Part shown: piece by piece, positions 10,734-59,689 of the stretch
How positions within the stretch are numbered: the first letter of the stretch is position 1
Layout: every line of letters starts with the position of its first letter
NCBI GenBank assembly: GCA_049296775.1
Contig: JBAQTB010000003.1
Coordinates: forward strand, 76,766-140,765
DNA length: 64,000 bases
Source of the DNA: Patescibacteria group bacterium
GTDB lineage: Bacteria; Patescibacteriota; Patescibacteriia; UBA9934
Direction: 5' to 3'
The notes under the pieces: model-generated
Told to the model about the DNA's origin: nothing
The model's input: only the letters and a program-made list of their open reading frames with translations
Databases searched by the model: none
Program-made: the position numbers and the translations under genes

Positions 10734-11088
10734 TATGAAAAATCAACCTTTATAAGCGGGAGTCAGGTTTTGGCTCTGGCGCACAACGCATCCATGCTGT
10801 CCTACCTCCAACCCACGGCTGCTGTGACATTTTTAATTTTCGTACGCGATGCTCACTCCCATCACGCCTAGGTAGCAAAGAACTCGTTTCGAGCTGATTT
10901 CACGATTTATTTTTTTTACTTCATCCGGCTATTACAGGTGGGGGGCTTTTATGCGGTTATAATGATATTGTGCGCATTATGAAAAATTATCTGTACTTAT
11001 CAGTAGCTTTAGTAATAATATATGGTGATCTCTAAACGTTGTATTTAGGAAATGCTATTGGTTGGAGTAGCGGTAAGTAATTAAAAAT

Positions 11089-11802
11089 ATGAGAAAAAAA
11101 TTATTTCCTTCCGTGGCGGTATTAATGTCATCATTAATTATCGGAGGGGCTATTATTGTTGCTCAATCCATTAAGTCTGGGTCGTTTGACGCTTTGGATG
11201 GTTCTCGTGTTAGCTCCCAAGATTCTTCTCAACACGTTGAGGAGACCGGAATTACCGAAGAGATTCGTGAAGACGACTCTTTGCCTTCTTCGAGCTTTCA
11301 GCCGTTGGTAGTCACGGATTTGGATATGTATTATTCAAAAGCTTCGGAAAACTTAGCTGATTGTTGTGATATACCTAGCGAAACTCTAACATTTTTTCTC
11401 ACGAAAAGGAACATCGCTCAGCAGTCATTTACTGAAAATACTGAATGGCTAAAAACCGCTAAAACTGCAGATGCAACCGTTTGTGTTTTAGAGTGGAATA
11501 AACTACTTACCGATACTCAAAAACTTATTAACGAAGCTCAAAATTTAGTCGATGTGGTGAGCATTAATAATGCAGGCGCTGAAGAAATTAAGAGTCAAGC
11601 GCGTAGTTATATAAATTCCATTCAAAATAAAACGTATCCTAACAAGGCTTTGTTAGAGAATTTTATAAACACCTCTATCGTCAGGTTAGATAGCTTCACT
11701 GTTGATGTTAATACTGCCGCTGACCAATTTAATACTGCTTTAACTACGAGAGATTCATCGGGGGAAAACTTAAAAACATGTCTTTCATCCTACTTGCAAT
11801 AG
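11089..11802 (+). CDS. Secreted/membrane-anchored hypothetical protein
   Basis: An N-terminal hydrophobic segment. AT-rich. Confidence 0.4.
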   Translation: MRKKLFPSVAVLMSSLIIGGAIIVAQSIKSGSFDALDGSRVSSQDSSQHVEETGITEEIREDDSLPSSSFQPLVVTDLDMYYSKASENLADCCDIPSETLTFFLTKRNIAQQSFTENTEWLKTAKTADATVCVLEWNKLLTDTQKLINEAQNLVDVVSINNAGAEEIKSQARSYINSIQNKTYPNKALLENFINTSIVRLDSFTVDVNTAADQFNTALTTRDSSGENLKTCLSSYLQ

Positions 11803-11955
11803 GCGCCGGACGTTTTTAACATCACGGTATAATCGAAGAATCTAGGCAGTTTGATGTGTGGATATGCCTAGATGACGTGAAATGCACGTTGGTAGTGCGG
11901 GAGAGAGGGGGGGTGATTTTTTGCCATAGTTAAAAATCCACATTGTTCATCTAAT

Positions 11956-12612
11956 ATGAAAAAACTGCTGTTGTTATGTTTTATCAGTCTGGCAGTATTG
12001 GGGAACGGTTGTTCTAACGTAACTTCATTACCCATCAATCAACAAATCGATGAATACGAGGATGTTGATATTGAAGCGTTGGAGTCGAGAGTCTCTGAGC
12101 TTGAAGGAATCGCAGGGTCTATTGAGTCCGTAAATAGTTTTATTTCACTAGATTCTCAGGCTGAAAGTTATCATCAATCTCCTATTAAATTCGTTGGGAA
12201 TGTTTCGCCTGATACATCTAGGATTGTGGTAACCGCACTATACGGAGGCAAGACGGACGTTTATACACTAAAAGATTATGCGCCTGGCAGTGCCTCGTTT
12301 GAATATCAAGCAGCAGAAAAATGGAATAATTTAGCGACTGGACAAAATACCTATTATTTTCAGGCGTATTTCAATGATGGAAGTAGTAATATATTTGAAA
12401 GAACGATTAGCTATTATCCACCTGTAGTTGAAGCGATGCCGATTCCCATTTCACCTCCCGTCAGTAAAACTGTTCAACCACCTGCTTATGTCGCGCCCTC
12501 AACGACACGTAGTTGCTGTAAGACTTGTGTGACGGGTAAAGCGTGTGGAGATTCATGTATATCTAAGAGTTATACATGCCATAAAGGCCCTGGTTGTGCC
12601 TGTAACCAATAG
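11956..12612 (+). CDS. Lipoprotein with C-terminal Cys-rich tail
   Basis: Lipobox LGNGC. The tail SCCKTCVTGKACGDSCISKSYTCHKGPGCACNQ has 10 Cys in 33 aa. Confidence 0.5.
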   Translation: MKKLLLLCFISLAVLGNGCSNVTSLPINQQIDEYEDVDIEALESRVSELEGIAGSIESVNSFISLDSQAESYHQSPIKFVGNVSPDTSRIVVTALYGGKTDVYTLKDYAPGSASFEYQAAEKWNNLATGQNTYYFQAYFNDGSSNIFERTISYYPPVVEAMPIPISPPVSKTVQPPAYVAPSTTRSCCKTCVTGKACGDSCISKSYTCHKGPGCACNQ

Positions 12613-12731
12613 CCAGTTATTAACTAAATTACATATAATTAGCTCCGTTACTGTTTCTTGCGGGTGCATTGCACAGGATGTCCACTTATTGCTGTTGCTT
12701 AGACTCGCGGAATTTGTTATTATATCTCCGT

Positions 12732-13079
12732 ATGGCAAAAAGTGATGTCGTGAAATTAACTGAGCGGTTGAGCGAACTTCAAGAGCTTCTCGCTAAGAAA
12801 ACTGAGATTGAGGATCGGTTGATGTATTTGACTGGCATTAAGCGTGAGGAGAAGAAGGCTGAATTAAAGCCTGACGGATTTTCTGTTATGGCAGCGATCC
12901 GTGAGGCGCTCACTGAAGCCAATCGCCCGCTCAAGGTTAATAGTCTTTGTTTGGCTATTAAAGCTCGCCATAATTTCGAGCCTGAGCCGGCGAGTGTTAG
13001 AACTACCGCTAAATATATGGTTAATAAAGGAGTATTAATTATGAATGATGTTACTAAAGAATTCAGTTTAATTACTTGA
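12732..13079 (+). CDS. Hypothetical protein
   Basis: ATG at 12732 (MAKSDVVKLTERLSELQELLAKK...). Confidence 0.3.
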   Translation: MAKSDVVKLTERLSELQELLAKKTEIEDRLMYLTGIKREEKKAELKPDGFSVMAAIREALTEANRPLKVNSLCLAIKARHNFEPEPASVRTTAKYMVNKGVLIMNDVTKEFSLIT

Positions 13080-13222
13080 AAGACACCCGTCCTTTGCAGT
13101 GGCGGTGCTATCAGGCTTATCGGATCTCCCGTTGAAAGTAGATCTATAAAGACTGGTAACACTCCCATTGGAAGGGATTGGTGGTAGGCCAATCGTCCCA
13201 AAATTGAATGGGTAATAAATAG

Positions 13223-13320
13223 GGAGGGATGACCGAGTTGGTCGATGGTACCGGCCTTATAAGCCGACAAACATTGCCTGAAAGCGTGTTTCGAGGGTTC
13301 GAATCCCTCTCCCTCCGCCA
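13223..13320 (+). tRNA. Type-II (long variable arm) Ser-like tRNA with apparent anticodon UAU
   Basis: The cloverleaf was folded by hand. Acceptor GGAGGGA/TCCCTCC, G73 and CCA are encoded. T-arm GAGGG-TTCGAAT-CCCTC. D-arm ACC...GGT. Anticodon stem CCGGC/GCCGA with loop CTTATAA (U33, A37). A 25-nt variable arm. Confidence 0.6.
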
Positions 13321-13462
13321 GATATTACTCATTCAATTTTGGAACGATCAGTGATTGTATTTTATAACATCCTTTTATTTCAACGTCAACTACATAAGTT
13401 TTATAAATTTATTTTAACATATTTATCGTCGAAGGTAATGTTTATCAACAACCGTATTTATT

Positions 13463-13960
13463 ATGGATAAATCTGAGGTTGAATTTTATTTAATATTAGC
13501 AGCTTTAGTAGTAGTTTTGAGTATTGCCTTGGCTGCATTATACTTCAATGCCTCAAAAGAAAATATTAGTGTGATCGTGGGGGAATATGACAATGGCAAA
13601 ATCTCCTTTTTAAAAATAGAAACTGCTAAACAGATTGTCGCTAAAAATATTGATAAGCCTCAATCACGCATTCATTATTGTCAGATCATCTTTGATAACG
13701 GGCTTATAATTTTAGGGTTATATCAAGAGGGAAATACGATTAAAGCTAGTCTTAAGGCAATCATAGCGAAAGCATTTGATAAGGACACTGAAATTAAGTT
13801 GTTTGTGGATGATCAACACGGAGTGCAACGATCCGGTAAAGATTATTTTATAGATGACATGGCATCTATTGGTATCTCTGATGATGGGGAGACCTCACGT
13901 ATTATCTTTGGCCCTACACCAATTCGCAAATTGTTAGACGATGCTCTAAAAGTTGGTTAA
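13463..13960 (+). CDS. Single-pass membrane protein (first gene of the AT-rich islet)
   Basis: An N-terminal TM helix (LILAALVVVLSIALAALYF). About 33% GC. Confidence 0.4.
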   Translation: MDKSEVEFYLILAALVVVLSIALAALYFNASKENISVIVGEYDNGKISFLKIETAKQIVAKNIDKPQSRIHYCQIIFDNGLIILGLYQEGNTIKASLKAIIAKAFDKDTEIKLFVDDQHGVQRSGKDYFIDDMASIGISDDGETSRIIFGPTPIRKLLDDALKVG

Positions 13961-13983
13961 GTGGTTATTGGTTCTAAACAAAA

Positions 13984-14007
13984 AACTAGCCTGGGCTGGT
14001 TTTTTTG
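13984..14007 (+). terminator. Rho-independent terminator
   Basis: ctagcctgggctgg hairpin followed by ttttttt. Confidence 0.4.
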
Positions 14008-14040
14008 CGAGGTTAATTAATTTCATAATTTCCAATAAGC

Positions 14041-14412
14041 ATGGTAGGCTTTGGGTATATGGAAGATAGTCGTTTAGATCTCATTATTCAGCAAATTATT
14101 GCTTTTAGAGATGCTAGGGATTGGAAGCAATTTCATAATCCTAAGGACTGTTCGTTGTCTTTGATCTTGGAGGCCGCAGAAGTGGCCGAGCATTTTCAAT
14201 GGAAAAATCAAGAAGAAATGCAAGCACATTTAGATGGGCACCGTGAAGAGGTGGCGGATGAATTGGCAGACGCCATGTATTGGATTTTGTTAATGAGTCA
14301 TGATGCTGGCATTGATATTCTTGAGGCCGTTGAACGTAAACTTGGGAAAAATAACTTAAAATACCCGGTAGATAAATCAAAGGGTCGCCATACTAAATAT
14401 ACCGAGCTCTAA
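14041..14412 (+). CDS. MazG-like nucleotide pyrophosphohydrolase
   Basis: EAAEVAEHFQWK ... EVADELADAMYWILLMSHDAGIDI are the MazG EExxE/D motifs. Confidence 0.65.
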   Translation: MVGFGYMEDSRLDLIIQQIIAFRDARDWKQFHNPKDCSLSLILEAAEVAEHFQWKNQEEMQAHLDGHREEVADELADAMYWILLMSHDAGIDILEAVERKLGKNNLKYPVDKSKGRHTKYTEL

Positions 14413-14415
14413 TGT

Positions 14416-15984
14416 ATGTCTGAAATTACTACATATCCATTTAATGCCGAGCAGGTGGTGCAAGTTTGTGAATACCATTTTGGCATGAATTGGCCGGTAG
14501 TTTATATTTTAGAGAATAAAAAGGAGGTATACATTGGTGAAACTGTTAGTGCTTATTCTAGAAGTAGACAGCATTTAGAGAATTCTGATCGAAGGCGATT
14601 GAACAGGATGCATATTGTTACGGATGAAGAATTTAACAAATCTGCCGCTTTGGACATTGAATCATTATTGATTCAGTACATGTCTGCCGAGGGGTCGCTG
14701 GTTTTACAAAATGGCAATAAGGGATTGGTTGATCATAACTATTATGATCGTGAAAAGTACCAAGCCAAGTTTGAAACTATTTGGGACAAGCTGAAGGCGA
14801 TGTCATTGGTGTCTAAAGATTTAAAGGACATTAGAAATAGCGATTTATTTAAGTTTTCACCGTTTAAGGCCTTAACGGTAGATCAGATTTTAGTAGCTGA
14901 TCAAATATTGGAGATCTTGAGAACTAAAACTGAAGCTACAATCGTCATTTCTGGTAAACCAGGTACTGGCAAAACTATCTTGGCGATTTACTTAATGAAA
15001 AGATTGAAGGAAGAGGAGGAATTCAAGCAGCTCAAGACGGCTTTGGTGGTTCCGATGGCTTCATTGCGAGAGACTTTGAAAGGCGTATTTTCCTTTGTTA
15101 AAAATCTTAGTGGTGGGATGGTGAAAGGGCCGAGCCACGTTACAGATTCTAGTTATGATTTGTTGATTGTAGATGAGGCGCACCGATTGCATCGTAGAAG
15201 GAATATTGTTAATTACGCCTCTCATGATAAAACTAATCAGAAATTAGGTTTAGCTAATGACGGGACTGAGTTAGATTGGATTATGAAATCCGCACGGTAT
15301 AAAATTTTGTTTTACGATGAAAAGCAACATGTCAGACCATCTGACGTAACCCCGGCGGATTTTAAAAAGTTAGCAGCAACACATTTAGACCTACAGACTC
15401 AAAAGAGAGTGGAGGGTGGCGATGAGTACATTCAATTCATCGATAGCTTATTTAATGAGTCAAAAGGTTTACCAGCATTTAAAGATTATGACTTTAAAAT
15501 TTTTGATAGTTTAGAATTAATGGTGAAGCAAATTGATGAAAGAGAGAAAGAGGTGAAGTTATCTCGTTTGGTTGCTGGTTATGCCTGGGAGTGGATCTCA
15601 AAAAAGAATAAGGCTTTGTATGACATTGAAATCGATGGAGTTAAGTTAAAATGGAATAGCGTGAACACTGACTGGGTAAACTCTCCAAATTCAGCAAATG
15701 AGGTTGGCTGTATTCATACTATTCAAGGATACGATTTAAATTACACTGGAGTTATTATTGGGCCAGAAATGACTTATGATCCAATTAGCGAACAGCTAAA
15801 GGTCGTTAAAGGTAATTATAAGGATAGGAATGGTCATGCTGGTGTTGATGATTCTGCTGAGTTAGAGAGATACATTTTTAATATCTACCGCACTTTGTTG
15901 ACTAGAGGCATGAAGGGAACATATGTGTATGCTGTTGATCCGGAGTTGAGGGCTTATTTGAAACGGTGTTTGCTGGGAGAATAA
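14416..15984 (+). CDS. GIY-YIG nuclease domain fused to a DUF2075/Schlafen-like P-loop ATPase (SF1-helicase-related)
   Basis: VYILENKKEVYIGETVSAYSRSRQH (GIY-YIG). Walker A ISGKPGTGKT and Walker B LLIVDEAHRL. FKFSPFKALTVDQILVADQILE is typical of DUF2075. About 37% GC. Confidence 0.6.
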   Translation: MSEITTYPFNAEQVVQVCEYHFGMNWPVVYILENKKEVYIGETVSAYSRSRQHLENSDRRRLNRMHIVTDEEFNKSAALDIESLLIQYMSAEGSLVLQNGNKGLVDHNYYDREKYQAKFETIWDKLKAMSLVSKDLKDIRNSDLFKFSPFKALTVDQILVADQILEILRTKTEATIVISGKPGTGKTILAIYLMKRLKEEEEFKQLKTALVVPMASLRETLKGVFSFVKNLSGGMVKGPSHVTDSSYDLLIVDEAHRLHRRRNIVNYASHDKTNQKLGLANDGTELDWIMKSARYKILFYDEKQHVRPSDVTPADFKKLAATHLDLQTQKRVEGGDEYIQFIDSLFNESKGLPAFKDYDFKIFDSLELMVKQIDEREKEVKLSRLVAGYAWEWISKKNKALYDIEIDGVKLKWNSVNTDWVNSPNSANEVGCIHTIQGYDLNYTGVIIGPEMTYDPISEQLKVVKGNYKDRNGHAGVDDSAELERYIFNIYRTLLTRGMKGTYVYAVDPELRAYLKRCLLGE

Positions 15985-16004
15985 TCCGGTCGTTATTCGA
16001 AACT

Positions 16005-17501
16005 ATGCACATCACGAAAACGGATTATCTTGAATATACTTACTGTAAGAAGAATCTTTGGCTTAAGAAGTTTAAGCGGGAGTTGTTTGAGGGCGTTGAG
16101 TTGTCCGAATTTGAGAAGAAGATTATTGAGGAGGGCAATGCGGCGGATGAGGCGGCCAGGCATTTGTTTCCGGAGGGGCAGTTGGTAGAGACGGTGGGGG
16201 TGGGGGCGGCCTTGGCCACCAAGACGTTTTTAGAGGCGGGTGTCAAGACAATTTTTCAGGGAGCATTTAAGCATGGGGAGTTCTTTGTCCAGGCCGACAT
16301 TTTGAGATTTGATGCTGTTACTGGTGGATGGGAATTGTATGAGGTCAAGGCGACCAATGCGGTGAAACGGATTGTGCCGCATCATCATGTGAATGATTTG
16401 GCGTTTCAGAAATCTGTGATTGAGGCGTGTGGTTTGGAGATTAAGAAGACGGGGGTGATTCATTTGAATGGGGAGTATCGTCCGCAGGGGCGGCTGAACT
16501 ACGGAGAGTTGTTTGTGGTGGCGGATTTGACGGATGAGGTGTTGGAGGCTCAGGCGGGAGTTAAGCTGCAGATGCAGGATTTAAAGACGTATTTGAGTTT
16601 GCCGGAGGAGCGGGGGTGTGAGTGTTTGTACCGGGGGCGGAATGCCCAGTGCACTACTTTTGCGTATTCCAATCCGGAGGTGCCGGAGTATTCTGTGCAT
16701 GACATTAGTCGGATTGGGGGGAGTAAGAAGTTGTTTTTTGATTGGATTGACCGGGGGATTTATGCGCTTAATGACATTGATAATCCTGAGAAATTGACTG
16801 GGTCCAAGCGGTCACAGTATGACGCGTACATGCTGGGCCGGCCGCTCATTGATCAGACGGGGATTAAGCAGGCCTTGGACGGTTTACAGTTCCCGCTGTA
16901 CTTCTTTGATTATGAAGGTTACTCCTCGGCCATTCCGCGGTTTGATGGTTTTGGCACGTATGAGCAGGTACCGTTTCAGTATTCACTCCACATTCTGCAT
17001 GCAGATGGGGAGATGGAGCACAAAGAGTTTTTGATTACAGATTTATCTCAAGATTTAACTTTGCCGTTAGTGGAGCAGATGAGGCGGGATTTTGGGGAGA
17101 CTGGTTCTGTGATTTCTTGGTATAAGTCTTACGAATCACAGCGCAACACTAAGTTGGCAGAATTGCATCCTAGCCACGCCGAGTTTTTGGAGGCCTTGAA
17201 TGACCGCATGTTTGACTTGATGACGATTTTTTCAACTGATCTGTATGTGGATGCGGCCTTTAAGGGGAGTGCGAGTATCAAAAAGGTTTTGCCAGTGCTA
17301 GTCCCAGAGTTGAGCTACAAGGTGTTGAAGGTGCAGAAAGGAGATCAAGCCATTGAGCGTTGGGAAAAGATGATCGCTGCTGACACATCCCCATCAGACA
17401 AAGCCCAAATCGCCCAAGACCTGCTGGAGTACTGCAAGCTAGATACCCTCGCCATGGTCAAGATTTATGAGGCTTTGAGGGGTATATACTCAGGGATATG
17501 A
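16005..17501 (+). CDS. Cas4/RecB-like PD-(D/E)xK nuclease fused to a DEDD-type 3'-5' exonuclease-like (DUF2779-like) domain
   Basis: ADILRFD...ELYEVK (D/ExK core). Cys residues YCKK and CECLYRGRNAQC. C-terminal FFDYEGYS (Exo I DxE) and EYCKLDTLAMVKIY (Exo III YxxxD). An alternative GTG start at 15966 would overlap the upstream gene by 19 nt. Confidence 0.5.
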   Translation: MHITKTDYLEYTYCKKNLWLKKFKRELFEGVELSEFEKKIIEEGNAADEAARHLFPEGQLVETVGVGAALATKTFLEAGVKTIFQGAFKHGEFFVQADILRFDAVTGGWELYEVKATNAVKRIVPHHHVNDLAFQKSVIEACGLEIKKTGVIHLNGEYRPQGRLNYGELFVVADLTDEVLEAQAGVKLQMQDLKTYLSLPEERGCECLYRGRNAQCTTFAYSNPEVPEYSVHDISRIGGSKKLFFDWIDRGIYALNDIDNPEKLTGSKRSQYDAYMLGRPLIDQTGIKQALDGLQFPLYFFDYEGYSSAIPRFDGFGTYEQVPFQYSLHILHADGEMEHKEFLITDLSQDLTLPLVEQMRRDFGETGSVISWYKSYESQRNTKLAELHPSHAEFLEALNDRMFDLMTIFSTDLYVDAAFKGSASIKKVLPVLVPELSYKVLKVQKGDQAIERWEKMIAADTSPSDKAQIAQDLLEYCKLDTLAMVKIYEALRGIYSGI

Positions 17502-35883: not shown

Positions 35884-37755
35884 ATGGAAAAACATCCCCT
35901 GCACCTCAAGAATTCCGGACTCCAGACCTCTCCTGAGGTACAGCGGGCAGTACAGCGCCAAGAGCAGCGTACGGATGAGAAGATTCCTAATGATCCAAAG
36001 GAACGTATTGAGGCATATGTGGGTAGGCTTGAAAATGTATTCTTGAATCCTGACGAGCGCATCCGTGAACGTAACCTTGAGATGTTCCGGCCAAATATTT
36101 ACGCTGCTCTACTGACTAAGAAGGAAAACTTTCCCGAAAGCTATTTTGAGCTCCAACAACGTATTGCACGAGAACGTGGTCAGGCGGTTGAGGAAATACC
36201 TGATAACGTTCGTGAACAGATGAAAGATGTCGCGATTACGGACCAACGGCATTCTTTGGATGCCTGGATAGATTATCTGTCATCAAATGATGCCATGTAT
36301 CCACCTTGGTTCAAGTTATTTATTTGGCAAAACATTACCAAGCTCTCCCAGTTTGATAAAGAACGCGGTGAGTTCAAAAAACGCACAAAGAGCACCGTGG
36401 CACCTTTCCCGGATATTTACCGAGAACCACTAGCACGCATTGCTGACGTTTATGAGCAAGTTAAAAAGGATAATCAGAGTCTCAAGGACGAGGATGTTCG
36501 TGAGGTTTTCTCAAAGCAGTTTCCTGCACTTTATGCCGAGTTTATTCAGGAGTCACTAGCTGCTTCTCTTGAAAATCGAGAGAATACCTTAGGTCAATGG
36601 GTCAAGTATGAGCAGGGAGATGGTGAAGCGGCTGAGACCTTATTCACATCTCTGGAAGGCAAAGGTACGGGTTGGTGTACGGCTGGACGCTCAACGGCAG
36701 CAGCTCAGATAGAGAGTGGTGATTTTCACGTTTATTATACGAATGATGCTAGTGGTACTCCCGCTCAGCCACGCCTCGCTATCCGTATGGTTGGTACCGA
36801 CTATATTGGCGAAGTGCGCGGCACGCTTCCAAGTCAAGGGGTGGAGCCTGTAATGCAAGAAGTGCTTGATATTAAGCTCAACGAGTTCGGTCCTGAAGCT
36901 GATGCCTACCGCAAGAAGAGTCAAGACATGCGCAGGCTCACCGAACTCGATGAGAAGATGTTCATTCGCGACAATCAAGGTGATATTACTGAACGCCTCA
37001 ATCCCACACTTAAAAAACAAGACCTCCTTTTCCTCTACGAAATCAACGCTCCTATCAAGGGCTTCGGGTACGAGAAAGACCCTCGTGTTTTCGAGCTACG
37101 CAATGAACGCAATCCTGATGAGGATATGCCTATCATTTTTGATTGTCCAAAGGAGCAAATTGCGAGGAACGTGGCAGAAATAGATGAATACACTTGGGCT
37201 TATGTGGGTCCACTTGAAGCCGGTATTTTTGATAAACTCCCCGAGCACATTGAACATATCTATACCTCTTTCCCTGAAGGTAAAATCCGTCGCGAGCACA
37301 TAGAGATTGGAGATAAGACGAGTGAGGAACTAAGAGACCTGCTTACGGAGAGTGGTGTGAAAATCGGTGATTATGCTGATTTCATGATGAACAGTCCCGA
37401 GTTCATGAAACGCCAAGAGTCAGAAATTGTTGAGCTTATCAGGCTGAAAGTGCGTGACCTTGGTTTGTTTAGTCGTCCAACCACAGATCAGATTTATGCC
37501 CGTATCGGAGAGTTGGGTCTTGAGCTCTGTCCTGCTGAGGTCGGCCCTCGCTACCGGTTAATCTATAAGGATCAGCCTGTCGGTGAGTATATAGCCGTTG
37601 GCATGAAACCAATCATCGGCCAGAACGGGTACCCGTTCGTTTTCAGCGTTGGACGCCGCGGTGATGGTTCGTGGCTGAACGACAGCTGGGCGAGGCCGGA
37701 CGAGCAGTGGAATCCCGACCACGAGTTCTTGTTCCGTCTGCGCAAAGAAATTTAG
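35884..37755 (+). CDS. Large hypothetical protein (623 aa), no recognised domain
   Basis: A long uninterrupted ORF. Confidence 0.4.
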   Translation: MEKHPLHLKNSGLQTSPEVQRAVQRQEQRTDEKIPNDPKERIEAYVGRLENVFLNPDERIRERNLEMFRPNIYAALLTKKENFPESYFELQQRIARERGQAVEEIPDNVREQMKDVAITDQRHSLDAWIDYLSSNDAMYPPWFKLFIWQNITKLSQFDKERGEFKKRTKSTVAPFPDIYREPLARIADVYEQVKKDNQSLKDEDVREVFSKQFPALYAEFIQESLAASLENRENTLGQWVKYEQGDGEAAETLFTSLEGKGTGWCTAGRSTAAAQIESGDFHVYYTNDASGTPAQPRLAIRMVGTDYIGEVRGTLPSQGVEPVMQEVLDIKLNEFGPEADAYRKKSQDMRRLTELDEKMFIRDNQGDITERLNPTLKKQDLLFLYEINAPIKGFGYEKDPRVFELRNERNPDEDMPIIFDCPKEQIARNVAEIDEYTWAYVGPLEAGIFDKLPEHIEHIYTSFPEGKIRREHIEIGDKTSEELRDLLTESGVKIGDYADFMMNSPEFMKRQESEIVELIRLKVRDLGLFSRPTTDQIYARIGELGLELCPAEVGPRYRLIYKDQPVGEYIAVGMKPIIGQNGYPFVFSVGRRGDGSWLNDSWARPDEQWNPDHEFLFRLRKEI

Positions 37756-52329: not shown

Positions 52330-52627
52330 GTTTACCTCCTAAGAGTGAGTTCAGTAGAGCGTTTCGAGCTCCACCATACGAATCCTGACAATAAAACATT
52401 CAGGACGTGTCACTATAGCATAAAACATGTCTTTGTCAATATAGAAACCCGAGGCTCCCATAGCGCACCTGAGTGCGGATAATGCTATGATTTGGGTATT
52501 AAGGAGAGTTATTTAGCTTGACAAAGACAGAAATTTTGCTATCTTTAGTTATATTCAGGAGAGTCACGTAAACCTTATCATTGAGACATTGTAAAGTTTA
52601 CGGGGTTCTTCTTCCCCGGGAGTAGTC

Positions 52628-59015: not shown

Positions 59016-59512
59016 TACTTGGTGGCAACGTAGCAGTTGAGAACGCTCTGGAAGGCGTTCGAATCATCGTATGTTTTGCGGTTCTCTGTATCGACGCCAT
59101 CGACGCGGTCTATCGTGCCGTCCGCGCTCTCATCGATCATTGTGACCGTGAAATGCCTGTCGAGTCCTTGCCGCTCGACCCCCACCATCGTCGCGAAGAC
59201 GACGAGGGTCTGGCTGCCCGAGGGGTTCAACCGAAGGAGGACTTCGGTGCCAATGAAGGCAAGGGTCGGACAGGTGACCTGCGCGCGAAAGGTCTGGGTT
59301 CCGCCGTCGGCGTCGGAGGGCGCGGTCTGCTGGAGAAGAAACACCGCCTTTTTCGCTGCTGCGTCGGCGGGGATGGCGGGCTCGGAAGCGACTGCGGTGG
59401 AGGAAAGGGTCAGAAAAAAGGCGCAGATGAACGGAACGAACATTGGAACTCCTGTGAGGAAGGCAAGATGCCATTCGACTAATAAAATACCAAAAAATAG
59501 TCCTTTTGTCAA
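59015..59512 (-). CDS. Secreted hypothetical protein
   Basis: Has a signal peptide. A consensus promoter lies upstream (TTGACA-17-TATTTT). Confidence 0.4.
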   Translation of the reverse strand: MTKGLFFGILLVEWHLAFLTGVPMFVPFICAFFLTLSSTAVASEPAIPADAAAKKAVFLLQQTAPSDADGGTQTFRAQVTCPTLAFIGTEVLLRLNPSGSQTLVVFATMVGVERQGLDRHFTVTMIDESADGTIDRVDGVDTENRKTYDDSNAFQSVLNCYVATK

Positions 59513-59540
59513 GGCAAAATCGTCTAAAATACAGGTTTTT

Positions 59541-59568
59541 TGTGACTTTACCGGGAATCAACTCCGGC
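59541..59568 (-). repeat. Degenerate copy of the tRNA-Glu 3' half (possible att-site remnant)
   Basis: tttgtgactttaccgggaatcaactccggc against the tRNA region ttggtgacctcaccgggaatcgaacccgga gives 21/30 ungapped identity. The core gtgacNtNaccgggaatc matches 16/18. Confidence 0.35.
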
Positions 59569-59636
59569 TTTTGGGTCGATGTTATTTCTCGTTGATATAA
59601 TTTGGCTAATATAGGCCAATAATATGCGTATTTACC

Positions 59637-59665
59637 TTGACAAAAGGGTATTTTTCTGCTATGAT
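59637..59665 (+). promoter_or_regulatory. Sigma-70 consensus promoter (TTGACA - 17 nt - TATGAT)
   Basis: ttgacaaaagggtatttttctgctatgat lies 25 nt upstream of the ATG at 59690. The same TTGACAAAAG extended -35 recurs upstream of other island genes. Confidence 0.55.
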
Positions 59666-59689
59666 ATGTCGTTACCATGAAGCTCTCAG

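Follow-up and report, generated by a model that had tools for sequence, protein, structure and literature searches.

A Ser-type tRNA gene with a UAU anticodon in an AT-rich islet of a Patescibacteria genome: a candidate accessory decoder of AUA

A 64,000-nt stretch of contig JBAQTB010000003.1 (assembly GCA_049296775.1, Patescibacteria), referred to here as the window, contains a class II tRNA gene at 13223-13320 (+). The body of this tRNA is that of a bacterial tRNA-Ser, while its anticodon, UAU, reads the Ile codon AUA. The gene lies in a foreign islet and is enclosed by an inverted repeat able to pair as a leader-trailer stem of about 25 bp. We propose, at roughly even confidence and from the sequence, that the gene encodes an accessory, Ser-accepting AUA decoder, that is a natural missense tRNA brought in with the islet, which would be excised from an operon transcript by means of the flanking stem.

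The tRNA gene, its identity elements and its family

ARAGORN, which an earlier note made from the letters of the window had named as a check, called a 98-nt tRNA with anticodon TAT at exactly 13223-13320 (+), one of two tRNA genes found in the window. Infernal matched 13223-13317 to the Rfam tRNA family RF00005 from the first to the last model position with 54.1 bits (E = 7e-9; the gathering score is 29), and took about 23 nt as an insertion in the variable region. Both tools placed the anticodon (13258..13260, +) in the loop CTTATAA (13256-13262, +), which gives C32 U33 U34 A35 U36 A37 A38. The earlier note had read the same loop, with U33 and A37 around TAT. The agreement of two independent tools on UAU speaks against another anticodon register or an intron, either of which the note had considered.

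As read from the sequence, the acceptor stem is GGAGGGA/UCCCUCC (7 bp), followed by U8. The D stem has four pairs (ACCG/UGGU, G13.U22 among them) and a 10-nt loop, AGUUGGUCGA, with G18 G19. The T arm, GAGGG-UUCGAAU-CCCUC, has a 5-bp stem and is followed by G73 and an encoded CCA. The 23-nt variable arm (13269..13291, +) consists of two parts in the sequence and in the folds, a basal stem AAACA/UGUUU with one bulged U and a distal stem UGC/GCG with the loop CUGAAA. G15 and C48 are present. The tools thus show a canonical 7/5 class II cloverleaf (7-bp acceptor stem, 5-bp T stem) in which all universal tertiary positions are intact. The cloverleaf folded by hand in the earlier note stands as regards the 7-bp acceptor stem, the arms and the CCA; its anticodon stem (CCGGC/GCCGA), given as canonical, has four Watson-Crick pairs and a C27.A43 mismatch. 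The encoded CCA is uninformative on origin, because the host's tRNA-Glu gene encodes CCA too.

The bacterial Ser identity set comprises G73, C72, G2-C71, R4-Y69, C11-G24, a large variable region and G30-C40 (Table 1 of PMC9976931). All seven elements (7/7) are present in the window tRNA, with G4-C69 as R4-Y69. Outside the anticodon loop, the E. coli Ile determinants are A73, C4-G69, U12-A23, C29-G41 and G16 (PMC9976931). None of these five is found (0/5); the tRNA has G73, G4-C69, C12-G23, G29-C41 and U16. What it has in common with tRNA-Ile is limited to A35, U36, A37 and A38, and its U34 A35 U36 A37 A38 agrees with the N34-A35-U36-A37-A38 loop of a tRNA-Ile that reads an AUN codon. With UAU in place of a serine anticodon (NGA or GCU), the tRNA cannot be counted among the usual tRNA-Ser isoacceptors. 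Seryl-tRNA synthetase (SerRS) takes no determinant from the anticodon (PMC11415595; PMC9976931), so SerRS should charge the window tRNA with serine. From these published identity rules we infer that its body is that of a bacterial tRNA-Ser and that charging by SerRS is to be expected. The combination of a SerRS identity set, with long variable arm and G73, and an AUA-reading anticodon, as proposed in the earlier note, was therefore confirmed. A tRNA-Sec was ruled out, since that tRNA needs an 8/5 bacterial branch and a UCA anticodon, as against 7/5 and UAU here.

A DNA pattern was run over viral contigs and over genome and metagenome collections that do not contain the source genome. It demanded the loop CTTATAA on a Ser-like anticodon stem, then a spacing longer than a class I tRNA allows, and the T loop. 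Among 185,579 species-representative genomes it hit 29 loci (Proteobacteria, Acidobacteriota, Planctomycetota, Verrucomicrobiota, Zixibacteria and others), and there were hits at 21 loci in viral contigs and at least 120 in metagenome contigs. When the 110 distinct well-paired sequences were sorted, several structural classes emerged, whose abundances are biased because the pattern fixes the anticodon arm. One of these, defined here as class A by a 7/5 branch, G73 and a tRNA-Ser-type D arm, holds 31 distinct sequences including the window tRNA. When 16 class A genes were aligned, paired cells made up 94.9% and 13 of the 21 pairs showed compensatory changes; none of 500 shuffles was as good and no slid register came close. 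G1-C72 and G2-C71 were invariant, and C11-G24 was kept in 13/16.

A covariance model was built from 29 class A genes, leaving out the window tRNA. The window tRNA scored 80.7 bits, the top match outside the training set. The other tRNAs scored lower: 52-64 bits for other long-arm UAU tRNAs (class B, see below), 47-48 for two allo-tRNA-like forms (L130, L131), 44-57 for array-encoded tRNA-Ser and at most 58 for tRNA-Leu. It is 60-77% identical to the class A members. Because of its score on this model, the window tRNA is regarded as a genuine member of a selected family; the intact tertiary positions point the same way, and the decayed pseudogene envisaged in the earlier note is thereby rejected.

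The exact window-type anticodon-arm pattern had no match in metagenome contigs, and the pattern common to the window tRNA and its closest relative (L066) had none in viral contigs. In E. coli genomes, a BLAST search with the tRNA turned up nothing beyond 31 nt of T arm aligned to tRNA-Tyr, which is uninformative. An Rfam scan of 10.7-14.1 kb returned no other family above threshold. Below threshold, both the window (13259-13317, -) and L066 (2428-2487, +) matched the Plastid-psbI-rps4 3'UTR family antisense to the 3' half of the tRNA (37-38 bits; gathering score 68). That family presumably covers a plastid tRNA-Ser gene, which would make the match a distant trace of Ser-type ancestry.

The leader-trailer stem

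The 5' arm of the flanking inverted repeat (13192..13217, +) is 26 nt long, 92% complementary to the 3' arm, and ends 5 nt before tRNA position 1. The 3' arm (13323..13348, +) starts 2 nt after the CCA; once paired, the arms would give a stem of about 25 bp that carries the cloverleaf. The earlier note had mentioned neither this repeat nor the wide occurrence of such tRNAs. There are 25 pairs, with one G.U and one C.A mismatch. The duplex is worth -33.7 kcal/mol (z -6.4 to -6.8 against shuffles), and the minimum free energy fold of 13150-13390 sets the cloverleaf atop the duplex (z -4.4). It is the best short-range inverted repeat of all 64 kb. No second copy of either arm was found in the window, and the sequence beside the repeat reads without a target-site duplication.

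Leader-trailer pairing was scored against shuffled trailers for 120 distinct related tRNAs. A stem was detected in two of them, the window tRNA (z about -6.7) and L066/L088 (z -8.3; 23 bp), and the remaining 118 all lay above -3.5. L066 is the closest relative of the window tRNA: the two are 77% identical and do not differ in the anticodon arm, CGGCCUUAUAAGCCGAC, or in the T arm. The arm sequences of the two loci are without similarity, and tblastx of the window islet against L066 left the tRNA as the only thing common to both. The imperfections in the two stems, written on the tRNA-sense strand, are mostly G.U (four G.U against one C.A). At L066 a T-tract directly follows the 3' arm. A stem that is kept without its sequence, and on the sense strand, points to a role of the flanking duplex at the RNA level rather than as transposase-binding ends. 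It is not a general trait of such genes, being absent from the host's tRNA-Glu as well as from 118/120 related tRNAs.

A duplex of 23-25 bp is a textbook substrate of RNase III. Since the gene sits inside a string of co-oriented genes, the duplex would most likely serve to free, stabilise or gate the tRNA precursor.

L066 itself coincides with a step in GC, from 62% to about 45%, and occupies a gap of 1.1 kb without open reading frames (ORFs) beside a C5 DNA methylase. Elsewhere in the window, two further inverted repeats of 25 and 37 nt, at 52415-52542 and 59482-59667 with 78-112 nt between the arms, are made up around TTGACAAAG/CTTTGTCAA and resemble -35-type promoter boxes in divergent pairs rather than RNA stems.

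Host, islet and the neighbourhoods of related tRNAs

The gene content marks the window as part of a bacterial chromosome. Exact protein matches put it on a 383.5-kb contig (proteins MFZ2682061-MFZ2682119), on which locus tags WAZ14_03145-03160 flank the tRNA. For two core proteins, the closest homologues with a name belong to Candidatus Uhrbacteria and other Parcubacteria, in keeping with an Uhrbacteria-like host represented by a Patescibacteria metagenome-assembled genome (MAG). A phage origin was rejected: megablast of 11-19 kb against 50,697 phage records gave nothing, and the gene content is chromosomal.

The tRNA gene lies in an AT-rich islet (10800..16000; GC 0.31-0.44 versus about 0.48 around it), all ORFs of which are on the + strand, co-oriented with the tRNA. 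The earlier note had put the tRNA exactly at the boundary of this islet. A GC step from 0.44 to about 0.35 does occur just downstream of the tRNA, but it is internal, for low GC persists between about 10.8 and 16.0 kb, upstream as well as downstream of the gene. The idea of a foreign or mobile-borne tRNA fared better. In relatives with an HI0933-like flavoprotein of 82-85% identity the islet is missing, and the 10 kb upstream of the flavoprotein gene hold no tRNA, so the islet with its tRNA is an accessory acquisition. The 3' 25 nt of the tRNA are not repeated within the 64 kb with up to 3 mismatches allowed, and the gene thus lacks the att duplication of an integration site.

Upstream of the tRNA the islet holds three orphan ORFs (11089-11802, 11956-12612 and 12735-13079), none with a Pfam or PADLOC match; the last, the immediate neighbour (12735..13079, +), encodes 114 aa. 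The downstream neighbour (13463..13960, +) encodes a 165-aa orphan with an N-terminal hydrophobic segment and five AUA codons (30 per 1000). It has no Pfam match, one weak PADLOC match (PDC-M62A, E = 5e-4) and, among 5.8 billion proteins, matches itself only. It is followed by a MazG-like pyrophosphohydrolase (14041..14412, +; PF12643, E = 1.4e-16) and a protein with GIY-YIG and a Schlafen-group-3/DUF2075-type helicase (14416..15984, +; PF09848, E = 1.8e-68; PADLOC AbiO 8e-14, Nhi 2e-13). Together with a DUF2779 protein these two make up a defence-type trio at the 3' end of the islet (14041-17501), the helicase being AbiO/Nhi-like. The DUF2779 protein has a weak Cas4-like match and its start overlaps the helicase stop; a Logan assembly of the same sample breaks inside its gene. 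No synthetase paralogue was found near the window tRNA.

Neighbours were surveyed at 30 class A loci. IS1595 transposases occurred seven times; type I-U/G cas genes were represented by GSU0053 (four), Cas3 (three) and GSU0054 (two), and the TacA antitoxin was found twice. HipA, a resolvase and a C5 methylase were single cases. The neighbours were heterogeneous, and no protein partner was conserved across these loci. In L077 (1230-4035), perfect 23-bp terminal inverted repeats (GATGATTATGCACTTGACACAGA) enclose an IS1595 transposase, a class A tRNA and two small ORFs without family match; because the repeats enclose both transposase and tRNA, this tRNA is cargo of a 2.8-kb transposon. A Gemmataceae MAG and a Burkholderiales MAG carry class A tRNAs with 91% identity, a sign of transfer between phyla or else of mis-binning. 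The window tRNA belongs to a widespread, horizontally moving class found near transposases, CRISPR-Cas, toxin-antitoxin and restriction genes.

Some of these loci deserve separate mention. A 152-aa ORF homologous to one of L077 accompanies the tRNA in L139 and L169. At L018:610-706, L026:1234-1331 and L021:6211-6297, class A tRNAs stand directly beside type I-U/G CRISPR-Cas genes (GSU0053, Cas2/Cas1). In a Rhizobiaceae MAG (L010:3868-5392) 22 nt separate a class A tRNA(UAU) from a tRNA-Ala(UGC) downstream, and a free-standing YbaK-type aminoacyl-tRNA editing-domain gene comes about 1 kb further; the editing gene was seen at this locus only, possibly by coincidence. A Sediminibacterium MAG (L016:5780-5864) has a Ser-type tRNA(UAU) with the same 3' acceptor strand and 3' half of the T arm as the window tRNA. 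This one carries A73 and a pair of mismatches at the top end of its acceptor stem; a 521-aa ORF on the opposite strand overlaps it, and it is probably a decayed copy.

The pattern scan also brought up a second, larger class of long-variable-arm tRNA(UAU), class B, which is common in phage tRNA arrays beside tRNA-Ile(GAU). It was found in viral and metagenome contigs (L031-L042, L045, L057, L069, L080-L082, L113, L153) and in bacterial MAGs (L004, L009, L019, L022, L025). Class B tRNAs carry A73 and a D arm of class I type, and their variable region forms an additional hairpin with a 7-nt loop that is nearly always C-[A/U]-G-A-U-[U/A/C]-A (CAGAUUA, CUGAUUA, CUGAUAC, UAGAUAA). This loop is close to the anticodon loop of tRNA-Ile(GAU), CUGAUAA, and a normal-looking (G/A)AGGU(C) variable loop often follows. 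Class B looks like a tRNA-Ile body with two anticodon-type hairpins, possibly a mimic of the identity recognised by isoleucyl-tRNA synthetase (IleRS), and the members in phage arrays look like true Ile decoders. No description of them was found in the literature searched. Odd tRNA-like units in Planctomycetota tRNA arrays (L006, L012, L014, L062, L074, L168) and in viral contigs (L043, L044, L047, L049, L050) consist of a UAU-loop hairpin and a T arm, with no recognisable D arm, poor acceptor pairing and no ARAGORN call. Four loci (L130, L131, L140, L161), a small minority of the long-arm UAU tRNAs that the pattern brought up, have the extended acceptor stem and long D stem of the published allo-tRNA(UAU).

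Proposed function, alternatives and related systems

The frequency of AUA, which the earlier note had asked for, is 3.8 per 1000 codons in 28 core ORFs and 7.9 per 1000 in the islet ORFs. The AUA codons of the orphan islet ORFs are not interpretable because these ORFs lack homologues. Two core proteins were aligned with 41-43 homologues each. In a Pif1-like helicase the two AUA codons fall in V/I and I/V/L columns, and in a 623-aa protein (35884-37755) all six fall in I/L/V columns, with Ser in at most 1/41 sequences. As all eight testable codons (8/8) are in I/L/V columns, genome-wide recoding of AUA to Ser is excluded: AUA means Ile in this genome, and the recoding tRNA suggested in the earlier note is dismissed.

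A different picture was obtained from the IS1595 transposases linked to class A tRNAs (L013:875-1822, L077:3020-3991, L169:7141-8109, L061:9452-10399). Within this set AUA occurred in hydrophobic columns in 2/13 cases, as against 73/88 for AUU/AUC. Against eight independent plasmid IS1595 references the values were 2/13 and 58/87 (p about 6e-4), and other rare A-ending codons behaved normally. Two AUA codons occupy the same columns in the L077 and L169 transposases, where the nearest homologues have Ala or Cys. A reading of AUA as a small residue was considered and dropped, since in the eight references the AUA columns are polar and variable, not specifically Ser-like. The pattern, suggestive at most, fits tolerance of an ambiguous AUA in those elements and does not prove decoding as Ser.

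In the proposed mechanism, the accessory tRNA gene would have arrived with the small foreign islet. Its 25-bp leader-trailer duplex, an RNase III-type substrate, would excise or stabilise the precursor from a longer transcript, or gate its maturation. SerRS would charge the tRNA with serine by virtue of its Ser-type body, and UAU in the C32-U33...A37-A38 loop would pair with AUA. The matured tRNA would then compete with the host's tRNA-Ile at the rare AUA codon and put Ser in place of Ile, which would be missense and not a change of the code.

Several points weigh against this proposal. The eight conserved core AUA codons stand at I/L/V positions, so Ser insertion would be harmful there. If the tRNA is active and charged with Ser, such damage implies that its activity is low, conditional or recent, and the conservation argues for low or conditional activity, or for another role. 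Several of the five AUA codons among the 165 of ORF 13463-13960 lie in hydrophobic stretches, which suits a tRNA that supplies Ile better. No promoter-like site was found directly upstream of the 5' repeat arm with a consensus that may not fit promoters of the Candidate Phyla Radiation. The C27.A43 mismatch in the anticodon stem also counts here, as does the preselection of the anticodon arm and T loop by the search pattern, which makes the class frequencies no unbiased census. Lastly, when six allo-tRNA(UAU) species were turned into amber suppressors, none worked in E. coli, and two of them proved toxic (PMC5389517).

The tRNA might instead accept Ile and supply it to the AUA-richer genes of the islet, with IleRS reading the UAU-A37-A38 loop despite the Ser-like body. 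IleRS is able to accept a UAU anticodon in some bacteria, and mobile elements often carry tRNAs for codons rare in the host. The twofold excess of AUA in the islet ORFs over the core, the 30 per 1000 in ORF 13463-13960 with several codons in hydrophobic contexts, and the apparent AUA decoders that phage arrays hold beside tRNA-Ile(GAU) would all fit. Those phage tRNAs, however, are of class B, with A73 and a class I D arm, whereas the window tRNA models as class A and has none of the five Ile determinants outside the loop. G73 is part of the definition of class A; even so, G1-C72 and G2-C71 are invariant there and C11-G24 is frequent. We judge an Ile-accepting decoder unlikely. A host that has reassigned AUA from Ile to Ser, with the window tRNA as the cognate, deserves next to no credence: it accounts for the combination of Ser body and UAU anticodon and for nothing else, while the eight AUA codons align with I/L/V in the 41-43 homologues (Ser in at most 1/41) and close relatives do without the tRNA.

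A role outside the ribosome is rather unlikely. The gene would specify a tRNA-shaped RNA serving the islet as decoy, substrate or sensor for tRNA-targeting toxins or defence nucleases, as a regulator or as a dedicated Ser donor, with UAU chosen as the anticodon least disturbing to decoding. Class A and allo-tRNA(UAU) genes adjoin toxin-antitoxin, CRISPR-Cas, restriction and transposase genes, and the converted allo-tRNA(UAU) species were inert in E. coli translation (PMC5389517); the long flanking duplex is also atypical of an ordinary tRNA gene. Such neighbourhoods may merely reflect hitch-hiking in variable islands, though, and no protein partner is conserved, the window islet and L066 having only the tRNA in common. 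Moreover, what translation asks of a tRNA in the anticodon loop, the T loop, G18G19 and the encoded CCA has been preserved exactly. As to the inverted repeats, they could be the terminal repeats of a miniature transposable element with the tRNA as cargo, the copy here being a neutral relic, expressed or not. The repeat-tRNA-repeat unit, at 157 bp, has the size of such an element, and L077 demonstrates that a class A tRNA can be cargo between 23-bp terminal repeats. This is nonetheless very unlikely, given that the window has no second arm copy or target-site duplication and the islet no transposase, that the arms of the window and L066 are unrelated where repeats of one transposase family should be alike, that the imperfections are mostly G.U on the tRNA-sense strand, and that the T-run after the L066 3' arm is placed as at the end of a transcript.

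A more specific role for the proposed Ser-accepting decoder can be imagined, to which we give little weight. The 25-bp duplex would hold the tRNA as an inert precursor, to be matured on demand, and Ser at AUA would preferentially poison the proteomes of invading DNA or trigger abortive infection. The idea rests on AUA being rare in the host core (3.8 per 1000) and common in AT-rich phages and plasmids. It is consistent with the recurrence of class A in defence and mobile islands and with the avoidance of hydrophobic columns by AUA in IS1595 transposases (2/13 versus 58/87). In a related reading, mobile elements with such tRNAs would give AUA a private meaning in their own genes.

The closest known tRNAs are the allo-tRNAs of Mukai et al. 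(2017, NAR, PMC5389517), whose defining traits are an acceptor/T branch of 8/4 or 9/3, a long D stem capped by a tetraloop and a lengthened anticodon stem. They occur in variable regions near transposon and toxin-antitoxin genes, with UAU as the commonest anticodon (PMC5389517). Like the window tRNA, allo-tRNA(UAU) is bacterial and has a long variable arm, G73/Ser-type identity and a non-Ser anticodon. The window tRNA differs in its 7-bp acceptor and 5-bp T stems, with a U8 that cannot pair with C65, and in its 4-bp D stem, 10-nt G18G19 loop and anticodon stem of five positions with one mismatch. Lacking the 12-bp 8/4 or 9/3 branch, the tetraloop D stem and the extended anticodon stem, it was rejected as an allo-tRNA. 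The hosts in that study are Clostridia, Proteobacteria and Acidobacteria, in contrast to the Patescibacteria MAG here, and a flanking duplex is not described for allo-tRNAs (PMC5389517). Mistranslating tRNA-Ser, namely Candida tRNA-Ser(CAG), human anticodon variants and engineered libraries, follow the same logic of a Ser body with a foreign anticodon (PMC11415595; PMC9976931). These are eukaryotic or engineered, and that of Candida became a change of the code, whereas the window tRNA is bacterial, accessory and islet-borne, with AUA as target and the code unchanged.

The Ile3 tRNAs are ordinary class I tRNA-Ile with A73, belong to the core genome and replace or back up tRNA-Ile2(CAU). They provide a genomically encoded UAU reading AUA in Mycoplasma mobile, Bifidobacterium, Neorickettsia and lactobacilli (PMC8450103). 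The window tRNA is by contrast class II, G73 and accessory. The nev-tRNAs of nematodes are charged with Leu. They bear Ile(UAU) or Gly anticodons, and PMC3333845 presents them as class II tRNAs whose non-Leu/Ser anticodons decode an alternative code for leucine. Being eukaryotic and of Leu identity, they resemble the window tRNA by convergence and not by homology. The tRNA-ProX is paired with a dedicated isoform of prolyl-tRNA synthetase. Found in Streptomyces and Kitasatospora, it is likewise a natural bacterial mix of identity and anticodon for which deliberate mistranslation has been proposed (PMC11415595). It combines Pro identity with Ala, Asn or Thr anticodons, as opposed to the Ser identity here. 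The window tRNA is set apart from these systems by its canonical shape, its Patescibacteria host and the leader-trailer duplex shared with its closest relative.

Natural mixes of identity and anticodon are rare test cases of how the code tolerates or exploits ambiguity. In the literature surveyed, bacterial Ser-type UAU tRNAs are the structurally aberrant allo-tRNAs only, whose translational role has been doubted. The window gene and its about 30 relatives present a canonical 7/5 version that is under structural selection. The class passes from phylum to phylum, in some cases within a transposon, and has come as far as a reduced Patescibacteria genome. The leader-trailer duplex may be relevant to the release or gating, by way of RNase III, of a tRNA that could be toxic. 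If the proposal holds, Ile-to-Ser mistranslation at the rarest Ile codon would be a conditional trait that bacteria encode on mobile genes.

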